A stretch of 64,000 nucleotides of DNA from a virus: the UHGV virus genome UHGV-0090252; one strand, given 5' to 3'. The notes below the pieces were generated by a model. That model saw only the letters and a list, made by a program, of their open reading frames with translations. It made no database searches and was not told the origin of the DNA. The translations under genes were made by a program, and so were the position numbers. Position 1 is the stretch's first letter. Each line of letters starts with the position of its first letter. Of the stretch, positions 7,510 to 7,940 are shown piece after piece.

Positions 7510-7768
7510 ATTAAATTATCTTTGTAGATAAGCTACCCAGACTTGCTTAAGGTCTGTAGCGATGTGCCTTTTTGGGTTTAAATCTAGAATTTACCCTTTC
7601 ACCCTTTGTGGTCGCATACTCACAGGTAAGCTTAATAACTTATCTACAAAGATAATTACCAGACCGTTGTTTATCATCTTAAGTGCTACCATTACACCAA
7701 CTCGACCTCTGCCGAGTGAAGGAATCGAACCTTCTCCTTTTCTTTACCGAGAAATAGATTGTTTAAGT

Positions 7769-7796
7769 TTTGCTGTAAACGGTCTTCTGTAAATTT
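7769..7796. repeat. 28-bp spacer element TTGCTGTAAACGGTCTTCTGTAAATTTG, copy 1
   Basis: identical 28-mer also at 8315-8342; diverged copies at about 7859-7883 and 8481-8510. Confidence 0.8.
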
Positions 7797-7940
7797 GTTG
7801 AGCCAGACCAAGTTTTAAATTTTTTCAAAATTGAATTGGCTTGAAAATATCATACGTACTTGCTGTATTTGGTCTTCTGCCCCTTTAAAGAATACTCGTA
7901 AGAACTCTTTAAGGGAGGGGCTAAATAGCCCTCTCAAAAT

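Follow-up and report, generated by a model that had tools for sequence, protein, structure and literature searches.

The tRNA array and its intergenic stretch

The stretch examined here, positions 7510-7940, lies in a transfer RNA (tRNA) array downstream of a gene for a predicted Ro60-like protein, within a window (the whole stretch of DNA analysed, 64,000 nucleotides (nt) of the viral genome UHGV-0090252) that belongs to a Felixounavirus; about 1.5 kilobases (kb) around the stretch are 96-99.9% identical to the phages pinkbiff, Alf5, Felix O1 and wV8. The 25 tRNA genes that ARAGORN reports in the window are minus-strand genes outside 7510-7940, and neither ARAGORN nor the Rfam tRNA model finds a canonical cloverleaf with an anticodon arm in this interval, in agreement with an earlier inspection of the letters by a model (the sequence-only reading). 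Since transcription would run along the minus strand, the plus-strand motifs of that reading are the reverse complements of the RNA. The motifs themselves are real, with coordinates off by 1-3 nt; what had been overlooked is which strand is to be read, that the acceptor stem is closed, and that a Ro60-like gene lies about 330 nt upstream of the first of the units described below. In the order of transcription, the 430-nt stretch is packed with tRNA-Asp, two conserved hairpins, unit C, unit D, element E and tRNA-Lys. Together with the spacers 8258-8340 and 8418-8507, it makes up a minus-strand cluster of small non-coding RNAs, presumably transcribed, rather than a set of junk spacers.

Four paralogous units with a common basal frame

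Read on the minus strand, each 28-base-pair (bp) element pairs with a CCAGACC element downstream of it, and the cluster thus contains four paralogous RNA units, listed here with their matches to a covariance model (R2) that is described further below.

8503-8426, minus strand: unit A, in the spacer between tRNA-Glu and tRNA-Met (8418-8507); outer helix UGAC/GUCA, internal loop AGA/G, inner helix AGACCAA/UUGGUCU, motif UUACAGCAA
8423-8508, minus strand: R2 match of unit A, 42.5 bits, E 7e-6
8337-8268, minus strand: unit B, in the spacer between tRNA-Met and tRNA-Asn (8258-8340); outer helix UUAC/GUAA, internal loop AGA/G, inner helix AGACCGU/ACGGUCU, motif UUACAGCAA
8265-8342, minus strand: R2 match of unit B, 53.8 bits, E 2e-8
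7882-7800, minus strand: unit C; outer helix GGGC/GCUC (one G-U pair), internal loop AGA/G, inner helix AGACCAA/UUGGUCU, motif AUACAGCAA
7798-7887, minus strand: R2 match of unit C, 33.8 bits, E 7e-4
7792-7656, minus strand: unit D; the same basal helices, motif UUACAGCAA, plus a V hairpin, a T-arm, a closed acceptor-like stem and a D-arm
7653-7797, minus strand: R2 match of unit D, 127.8 bits

The frame common to units A-D consists of a 4-bp outer helix, an internal loop with AGA on the 5′ side and G on the 3′ side, and a 7-bp inner helix, AGACC(GU/AA)/(AC/UU)GGUCU. A single-stranded U(U/A)ACAGCAA (UACAGCAA) is conserved 3′ of the 5′ helix strand. Each unit folds alone into this frame at minimum free energy, and units A and B fill their own spacers, 3-10 nt away from the tRNAs on either side.

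The repeats that build the frame were already apparent in the sequence-only reading. The 28-mer occurs exactly at 7770-7797, 1 nt from where its first copy had been placed, and at 8315-8342, and its diverged copies share a 20-nt core, TTGCTGTANNNGGTCTTCTG, which is found four times (7770, 7860, 8315 and 8481), with 0 occurrences expected by chance for either repeat. A second motif had been given as occurring four times in full; the full 9-mer TACCAGACC is confined to two sites, 7657 and 8269, and it is the 7-mer CCAGACC that is present at four places (7659, 7803, 8271 and 8429). The suggestion that elements at opposite ends of a spacer could pair through GACCGT/ACGGTC was borne out, and the pairing shows covariation. 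In the unrelated IMG/VR contigs L010, L012, L018, L020, L032 and L038, matches to the 20-mer were dismissed as chance, as they lie in coding-like sequence and have no 3′ partner.

A pattern scan of IMG/VR and of fetched GenBank loci yielded 140 units in 43 sequences. Among 35 distinct basal frames from Ounavirinae, 99.7% of the cells are paired and compensatory changes are seen at 5 of the 11 pairs, compared to pairing of only 21-44% in controls in which the partners were slid by 1-3 columns. The outer helix alone occurs in Ounavirinae as UUAC/GUAA, UGAC/GUCA, UUGC/GCAA, GAGC/GCUC and GAGC/GUUC.

These changes bear on the proposal that the 28-bp element is an internal promoter or another signal acting at the DNA level. 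A match to the sigma-70 consensus at 9 of 12 positions (TTTACA-N16-AATATT) does lie at 8338-8311; however, promoter-like sites are no more frequent in the region than by chance (19 vs 14.4 ± 3.9), the −10-like hexamer is found in unit B only, and the −35-like hexamer overlaps the covarying outer helix, where its changes (TTAC, TGAC, TTGC, GAGC) are compensated across the unit, indicating selection on the RNA. As the family matches described below are also strand-specific (81/81), a promoter or other DNA-level role appears extremely improbable.

Unit D contains a rearranged tRNA-like module

Unit D carries four further structural parts in addition to the basal frame.

about 7755-7735, minus strand: V hairpin
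7734-7718, minus strand: T-arm, GAAGG-UUCGAUU-CCUUC
7717-7711/7706-7700, minus strand: acceptor-like stem (AS), ACUCGGC/GUCGAGU, with loop AGAG at 7710-7707
7697-7683, minus strand: D-arm, GUGU-AAUGGUA-GCAC, preceded by U8-G9 (UG)

Read from the sequence, U8, A14, G18-G19 and U54-U55-C56...A58 are all at their place. RNAalifold, applied to 14 unit-D sequences, recovered the basal helix and the V, T, AS and D parts, and the minimum-free-energy z-score of the unit is −2.8. The T-arm at 7718-7734 and the adjoining ACTCG/CGAGT hairpin (7700-7704 and 7713-7717) had both been noticed before and are confirmed, but the element had been taken for a half-tRNA without an acceptor partner. In fact, the hairpin itself is the acceptor-like stem, paired at 7/7 bp and closed by a loop, and the T-arm, closed stem, U8-G9 and D-arm together form a circularly rearranged tRNA-like domain. 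In Ounavirinae, the AS of unit D is found in three unrelated versions in which pairing is kept (ACUCGGC/GUCGAGU, ACACG/CGUGU and ACCCUUC/GAAGGGU), and across phages the stem occurs in no fewer than 15 sequence versions without loss of pairing. The module is absent from units A-C. Of the origins considered in the sequence-only reading, a tRNA mimic and small RNAs were the right ones, whereas a tRNA remnant does not agree with a rearranged T/acceptor/D module that is kept by compensatory changes where the neighbouring protein is only 40-56% identical.

It could be argued in a similar vein that unit D is what decay has left of the boundary between two neighbouring tRNA genes, the 3′ half of the first and the 5′ half of the second, and that the repeats are neutral leftovers of tandem duplication. 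Dimeric tRNAs are known false positives in searches for YrlA RNAs (PMC4201824), tRNA dimers of phage T5 score 17-19 bits with R2, and some relatives encode N-CCA after the 3′ acceptor strand. A decayed junction would not, however, be expected to show acceptor strands that pair 7/7 with each other through at least 15 different sequences, or flanks that are conserved and covary; no matching outer halves and no ARAGORN call were found for unit D, and the element persists at 40% protein identity. The covariation largely refutes this explanation, which we consider very improbable.

A circularly permuted tRNA gene was examined as a further candidate and rejected: 1,824 re-joined permutations, run through ARAGORN with introns allowed, yielded 1,527 calls, in which many different anticodons and introns were proposed and an anticodon arm was never recovered consistently. 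ARAGORN accepts almost any junction of the re-joined halves of unit D, so that these calls only confirm the geometry of the acceptor, D and T parts.

Some of the acceptor-like stems resemble the 3′ end of a tRNA in that N-CCA follows the 3′ strand within the AS-closing loop (L037, L040, L046 at 9004-9060, L106 at 6563-6618, and L079). Among 18 distinct stems listed by a script, 4 encode N-CCA directly after the 3′ strand (P about 1.5e-4); when the 3 stems that we judged by reading to lie outside the family are removed, 3 of 15 do so (P about 0.002, by our own estimate). In phage SP116 (L015, about 5543, plus strand), unit D and tRNA-Lys are fused at their T-arms, apparently through recombination between the two arms.

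Element E and the hairpins following tRNA-Asp

The remainder of the stretch is occupied by the following structures.

7657-7514, minus strand: element E, a fifth structured RNA, with a closing helix of 20-24 bp (arms 7657-7636 and 7535-7514)
7559-7533, minus strand: mini-hairpin inside element E, CUAC-AGAC-CUUAAGCAA-GUCU-GG-GUAG, which echoes the unit motif and covaries
7884-7935, minus strand: two conserved hairpins, directly 3′ of tRNA-Asp and 5′ of unit C, z-score −3.2

The arms of element E form a 22-nt inverted repeat (7514-7535/7636-7657) that is 95% complementary, and the minimum free energy of the fold is −48.3 kcal/mol (z-score −7.2). Two separate palindromes, TTATCT-N4-AGATAA, had been reported in this region; they are present at 7516-7531 and 7640-7655, but they are really the two arms of this one long-range inverted repeat. 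A second allele of element E, found in JLBYU32, SUSP2 and Moogle-type phages, retains a 20-bp closing helix while the local palindromes are gone, which indicates that the long helix is the selected feature. In the alignment of element E, 97% of the cells are paired; compensation is seen at 7 pairs of the closing helix and at 2 of the mini-hairpin. Units A-D and element E thus constitute five structured RNA genes with covarying helices.

The hairpins at 7884-7935 are conserved in all relatives, including the Logan contig L045, and the first of them shows a compensatory change. The second (UUAAAGAGUUCUUACGAGUAUUCUUUAAA) has an 81%-identical paralogue at 4856-4886, between tRNA-His and tRNA-Gln.

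On the opposite strand, an open reading frame at 7562-7792 (plus), annotated as hypothetical in pinkbiff (pinkbiff_41), wV8 and Felix O1, was rejected as coding. It has no Pfam match, its C-terminus is shifted by a 1-nt indel in wV8, and it is absent from SUSP2.

The gene upstream of the array encodes a predicted Ro60 fold

Ro60-Y RNA particles are known from animals, some bacteria and a few phages. The gene that precedes the array is followed by two promoter candidates.

8835-10250, minus strand: Ro60-like protein gene, 471 amino acids, immediately preceding the tRNA/RNA array as transcribed
8816-8788, minus strand: candidate sigma-70-like promoter, TTGACA-N17-TAATAT, between the Ro60-like gene and tRNA-Pro; 10/12, a consensus match only
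8725-8696, minus strand: second candidate sigma-70-like promoter, TTGACA-N18-TAAAGT with TG, between the Ro60-like gene and tRNA-Pro; a consensus match only

The product matches the Pfam families PF25043 (1.7e-43) and PF11443 (1.8e-29) (DUF2828 plus DUF7788), and its homologues are annotated in some records as 'RNA-binding protein' or 'vWFA protein'. A phmmer search of the protein against the PDB found nothing. With an alignment of 40 sequences, AlphaFold2 produced a model with a predicted local distance difference test score (pLDDT) of 85 and a predicted template modelling score (pTM) of 0.85. The top 12 matches of this model in a Foldseek search of the PDB are all Ro60, over the full length, with E-values from 9e-8 to 2e-5 and template modelling scores of up to 0.65, and are followed only by vWA domains; they include the Ro60 proteins of Thermus phage phiLo and Xenopus as well as Deinococcus Rsr, the best being phiLo Ro60 (9l5y, E 9e-8). 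The protein thus models as a divergent Ro60 fold. The clade is large, with more than 2,200 DUF2828/DUF7788 homologues at E ≤ 1e-5 and 584 IMG/VR loci. In the Felixounavirus Bas63, the homologue gp130 has independently been called Ro60-like and reported to counter the Ppl defence system, and its authors speculated that 'some tRNA genes' beside gp130 are Y RNAs, none of which was located (2024 PhageMaP preprint, PMC11482910).

The two promoter candidates are much better sigma-70 matches than the site at 8338-8311, and analogous TTGACA sites are found at the same place in the Logan contigs L045 and L046. A search of the minus strand in 7510-7940 for intrinsic terminators found none. A gene for a DUF5681 protein (10330-10701, minus strand) immediately precedes the Ro60-like gene, and this pair of genes is syntenic in both contigs.

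The RNA family is linked to the DUF2828 gene across phages

In L046, where the protein is 56% identical, we found five units of the same architecture with other helix sequences (AGUAUC/GAUACU, AGACUA/UAGUCU, AGACUCU/AGAGUCU and AGUGUC/GACACU), two of them with T-AS-D modules. A more distant set consisted of 76 IMG/VR loci with proteins that are 39-48% identical. A simple detector of the T-AS-D order gave 48 matches vs 1 in reversed-sequence controls; in seven DUF2828 loci (40-45% protein identity), none of these matches overlaps an ARAGORN tRNA and all are framed by a stem and NCAGCA(A). A looser descriptor (stem, C[AC]GCA, stem) was abandoned in favour of covariance models, as it gave 202 matches vs 66 in reversed sequence and no strand bias.

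The covariance model R1, built only from unit D of Ounavirinae, gave 24 matches at E ≤ 0.002, in which 94.8% of the cells pair and 31 of 32 pairs are compensatory, compared to pairing of 34-42% in the slid controls. The rebuilt model R2 gave 81 matches at E ≤ 0.1, all of them on the strand of the DUF2828 gene. In the 64-kb window it detects units A-D and nothing more, and in the tRNA region of phage T5 (28-42 kb), which served as a negative control, its highest score is 19.5 bits, with only tRNA dimers matched. Matches were found in 43 of 79 other DUF2828 loci, and 44 of the 77 matches in these loci are no more than 300 nt from the gene, in a zone with 6.6% of the flanking DNA; many are less than 100 nt away and none overlaps the gene. 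The motif conserved throughout the family is (U)NCAGCA(A). In seven loci without a tRNA gene in about 5 kb on either side, the RNA is still present 15-130 nt from the gene, one example being AAGAUUCC-AUACAGCAAAC...GGAAUCUGG, which indicates that the RNA travels with the protein gene and not with the tRNAs.

The tRNA-free loci also help to evaluate the proposal of the sequence-only reading that the elements are processing signals, in which the units would be spacers that only aid the processing of a polycistronic tRNA precursor by RNase P, RNase E or RNase III. In the array, pairing of the basal helices does leave only a few nt between the 3′ end of a tRNA and the 5′ end of the one that follows; the 20-24-bp duplex of element E also has a length that is cut by RNase III. 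Yet the same RNA stands beside DUF2828 genes where no tRNA is near, most tRNA junctions of this array have no unit (there are 19 other tRNAs with no R2 match), and neither the single-stranded CAGCAA nor the T/AS/D module is needed for processing, with nothing similar in the T5 tRNA cluster. Processing as the primary role is therefore quite improbable.

Proximity to the gene raises another explanation, namely that the RNA is a cis element of the Ro60-like messenger RNA, either an autoregulatory site or a structure that stabilises the untranslated region, and that the copies in the array are dispersed duplicates. Many distant loci would fit this, as they have a single copy on the same strand, 15-60 nt past the stop codon or less than 130 nt before the start codon. 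It fits less well with the Ounavirinae, including the window, where the units are 330-2600 nt downstream of the gene, beyond the two promoter-like sites, and sit between tRNAs, whose processing would free them; several loci have 3-5 tandem copies, and the tRNA-like module has no obvious use in an untranslated region. We regard a cis element as improbable, and it would still presume binding by the same protein.

Units A-D as probable Y-RNA-like partners of a phage Ro60

These findings suggest that units A-D are probably Y-RNA-like partners of a divergent phage Ro60 and that they represent a new Ro60/Y-RNA branch. As in Y RNAs, the paired 5′ and 3′ ends form a bulged stem in all four units, which we infer to be the protein-binding site, and the RNAs are adjacent to the gene for a Ro60 homologue; in addition, unit D and RNAs of the distant loci have the T-arm, closed acceptor stem-loop and D-arm in the order seen in YrlA.

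Several observations weigh against this interpretation. In 36 of the 79 DUF2828 loci, no R2 match was found in the flanking DNA examined, and these include Vibrio phage phi-pp2 (L047). On the protein side, the Pfam search gave no TROVE match, the profile match to Ro60 in the PDB is not significant (E 0.45), and the likeness to Ro60 is at the level of the fold only. The GNCGAAN0-1G motif was absent from units A-E in a regular-expression search, the sole CGAA being inside the interior of unit A. At the gathering score, Rfam reports only tRNA and a group I intron in the window, and at E ≤ 10 it reports nothing relevant in 7400-8800 and eight distant loci, a negative result obtained with Rfam 15, in which the presence of Y-RNA models is unconfirmed. 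The units are thus not strict members of YrlA, since they lack the GNCGAAN0-1G/CGAA motif and an Rfam family, and their protein has no TROVE match by sequence. Furthermore, the pair counts for the R1 matches and element E come from model-fitted or small alignments and are biased towards structure. Finally, natural deletions are found, with SP116 lacking unit D and ESCO49 (L044, 1196-1400) lacking tRNA-Asp through most of unit D, which implies that the RNAs are dispensable on laboratory hosts and accessory; such a status fits a conditional role such as counter-defence.

In phi-pp2, no partner RNA was detected within 6 kb on either side of the gene, and tRNA genes lie about 3.4-5.8 kb upstream of it; either its RNA has diverged too far or such a partner does not accompany every DUF2828 gene. 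Scores of the Rfam model Dicty_Class_I_RNA on units A and B (17-20 bits vs a gathering score of 41.5) were attributed to chance.

If units A-D are indeed partners of the Ro60-like protein, the array would be transcribed from sigma-70-type promoters just downstream of the Ro60-like gene, and the units would be freed by RNase P and by 3′-end processing of the flanking tRNAs, from which they are separated by gaps of 3-10 nt. The Ro60-like protein would dock on the bulged basal helix and the CAGCAA motif. The resulting ribonucleoprotein particles (RNPs) would resemble Ro60-Y RNA particles, in which the tRNA-like module of unit D may recruit or decoy tRNA-binding factors. A more tentative extension, which we consider rather unlikely, is that RNase P cuts the acceptor loop of RNAs of the unit D type and that, with a CCA end either added or retained, this generates a two-piece tRNA mimic held on the basal helix and bound by the Ro60-like protein, the RNP serving as a decoy or sensor for host nucleases that target tRNAs in defence. 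This idea is based on the 7-bp stem, as in the RNase P substrate YrlA of Mycobacterium smegmatis, and on the stems that encode N-CCA; if true, it would explain why the Bas63 homologue counters an anti-phage system.

To our knowledge, all RNA partners described so far were found by means of a TROVE-annotated protein and a CGAA-type motif. The present data point to a large clade of Ro60 proteins, divergent in sequence, with its own conserved family of candidate RNAs, a different putative recognition motif, and tRNA mimics among its members. Phage Ro60 proteins, Y-like RNAs and the Ro60-like fold of the Felixounavirus protein are already known, whereas the RNA family itself, with its CAGCAA motif, its link to DUF2828/DUF7788, its multiple copies in tRNA arrays and its exact loci, seems to be undescribed both in Rfam 15 and in the literature that can be searched, where no previous account of these RNAs and no transcriptome of a Felixounavirus came up. 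The analysis supplies concrete coordinates for Y RNAs that were only guessed at in the Bas63 study, turns 'spacers' and a mis-annotated hypothetical open reading frame into genes, makes the reported counter-defence role of the protein testable at the RNA level, and provides a covariance model ready for annotating the RNA in phage genomes.

Further features of the array and window

An uncalled tRNA-Trp-like gene is present at 6728-6812 (minus strand); its anticodon is CCA, its acceptor reads AUGGGAC/GUCCCAU, and its D region is unusual. It is reported neither by ARAGORN nor by the Rfam tRNA model, and its equivalent in wV8 is annotated as a pseudo 'tRNA-OTHER'. Two genes called by ARAGORN, tRNA-Tyr at 8024-8111 and the second tRNA-Met at 8341-8417 (both minus strand), fall under the Rfam tRNA gathering score; the former gives only a weak tRNA-Sec match and is pseudo or 'tRNA-OTHER' in several GenBank records. 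The Tyr-Asn spacer at 8112-8180 (minus strand; Asn-Tyr as transcribed) has a stable fold (z-score −2.6) with a 7-bp acceptor-like stem, AUUUAGG/CCUGAAU, and a T-arm-like hairpin, AAGG-UGCAAGU-CCUU. This element of about 60 nt is missing in wV8, where the Tyr and Asn genes are 9 nt apart, and it is possibly a mini tRNA-like RNA of the indel type. Outside the array, a group I catalytic intron is found at 42180-42477 (minus strand; RF00028, 55.1 bits, E 3e-11).

Comparison with known systems

Circularly permuted tRNA genes are known from Cyanidioschyzon merolae. They resemble unit D in that the T-arm and the 3′ acceptor strand, which make up the 3′ half, precede the 5′ half with its 5′ acceptor strand and D-arm, and in having flanks that pair, but unit D reconstitutes no anticodon arm, and the archaeal/eukaryal splicing machinery is not expected in the host.

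Stable RNAs that are not tRNAs also occur in other phage tRNA clusters, T4 species 1 and 2 being one example. The T5 RNAs I, III, 1, 2 and 3 are likewise small stable RNAs, some called tRNA-like, among the tRNA genes of a lytic phage (T5 annotation); in contrast to the units described here, they show no homology to R2 (at most 19.5 bits, on tRNA dimers only) and have no known Ro60-like partner. The T5 record (L128) lists eight 'stable RNAs with unknown functions' among the tRNA genes, an old unexplained parallel.

A phage Ro60 that binds phage-encoded Y-like RNAs has been reported for Thermus phage phiLo, with the RNAs Yrl1 and Yrl2 (PMC12135203). That system, with which the Y-like RNAs of mycobacteriophages, CcrColossus and Bacillus phage G can be grouped, is similar in that phage Y-like RNAs lie beside the gene for a phage Ro60 homologue. 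However, the phiLo RNAs were identified through the CGAA motif, and the Ro60 gene downstream of them is of the TROVE type; motif, protein family and the tRNA-array setting of the window all differ. The gene for gp130 of Bas63 is the same gene in a close relative, and Y RNAs were proposed in the tRNA region next to it; the authors suspected annotated tRNA genes, whereas the candidates identified here are unannotated inter-tRNA spacers or are covered by a spurious open reading frame (pinkbiff_41).

A further likeness is to YrlA and YrlB, the Y RNAs bound by Ro60 (Rsr) in Salmonella Typhimurium and Mycobacterium smegmatis, where several RNAs per locus also lie beside the gene for a protein with the Ro60 fold. 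In YrlA, the parts follow one another as V, T-arm, AS and D-arm, and Ro60 binds a motif located in the 5′ part (Chen et al. 2014, PMC4201824). Unit D has the same V hairpin, T-arm, closed acceptor stem-loop and D-arm, units A-C correspond to YrlB as smaller siblings without the module, and a short conserved motif is likewise found in the 5′ part. The 7-bp acceptor-like stem of M. smegmatis YrlA, which makes it a substrate of RNase P (PMC4201824), is shared by unit D. The phage units differ in having (U)ACAGCAA after the bulged helix instead of GNCGAAN0-1G, and in their DUF2828/DUF7788 partner, with no TROVE match by sequence and no Rfam match. Unlike in YrlA and YrlB, conservation and covariation extend to both strands of the basal helix in the phage units, which are embedded in a tRNA array and are probably released from it by tRNA processing.

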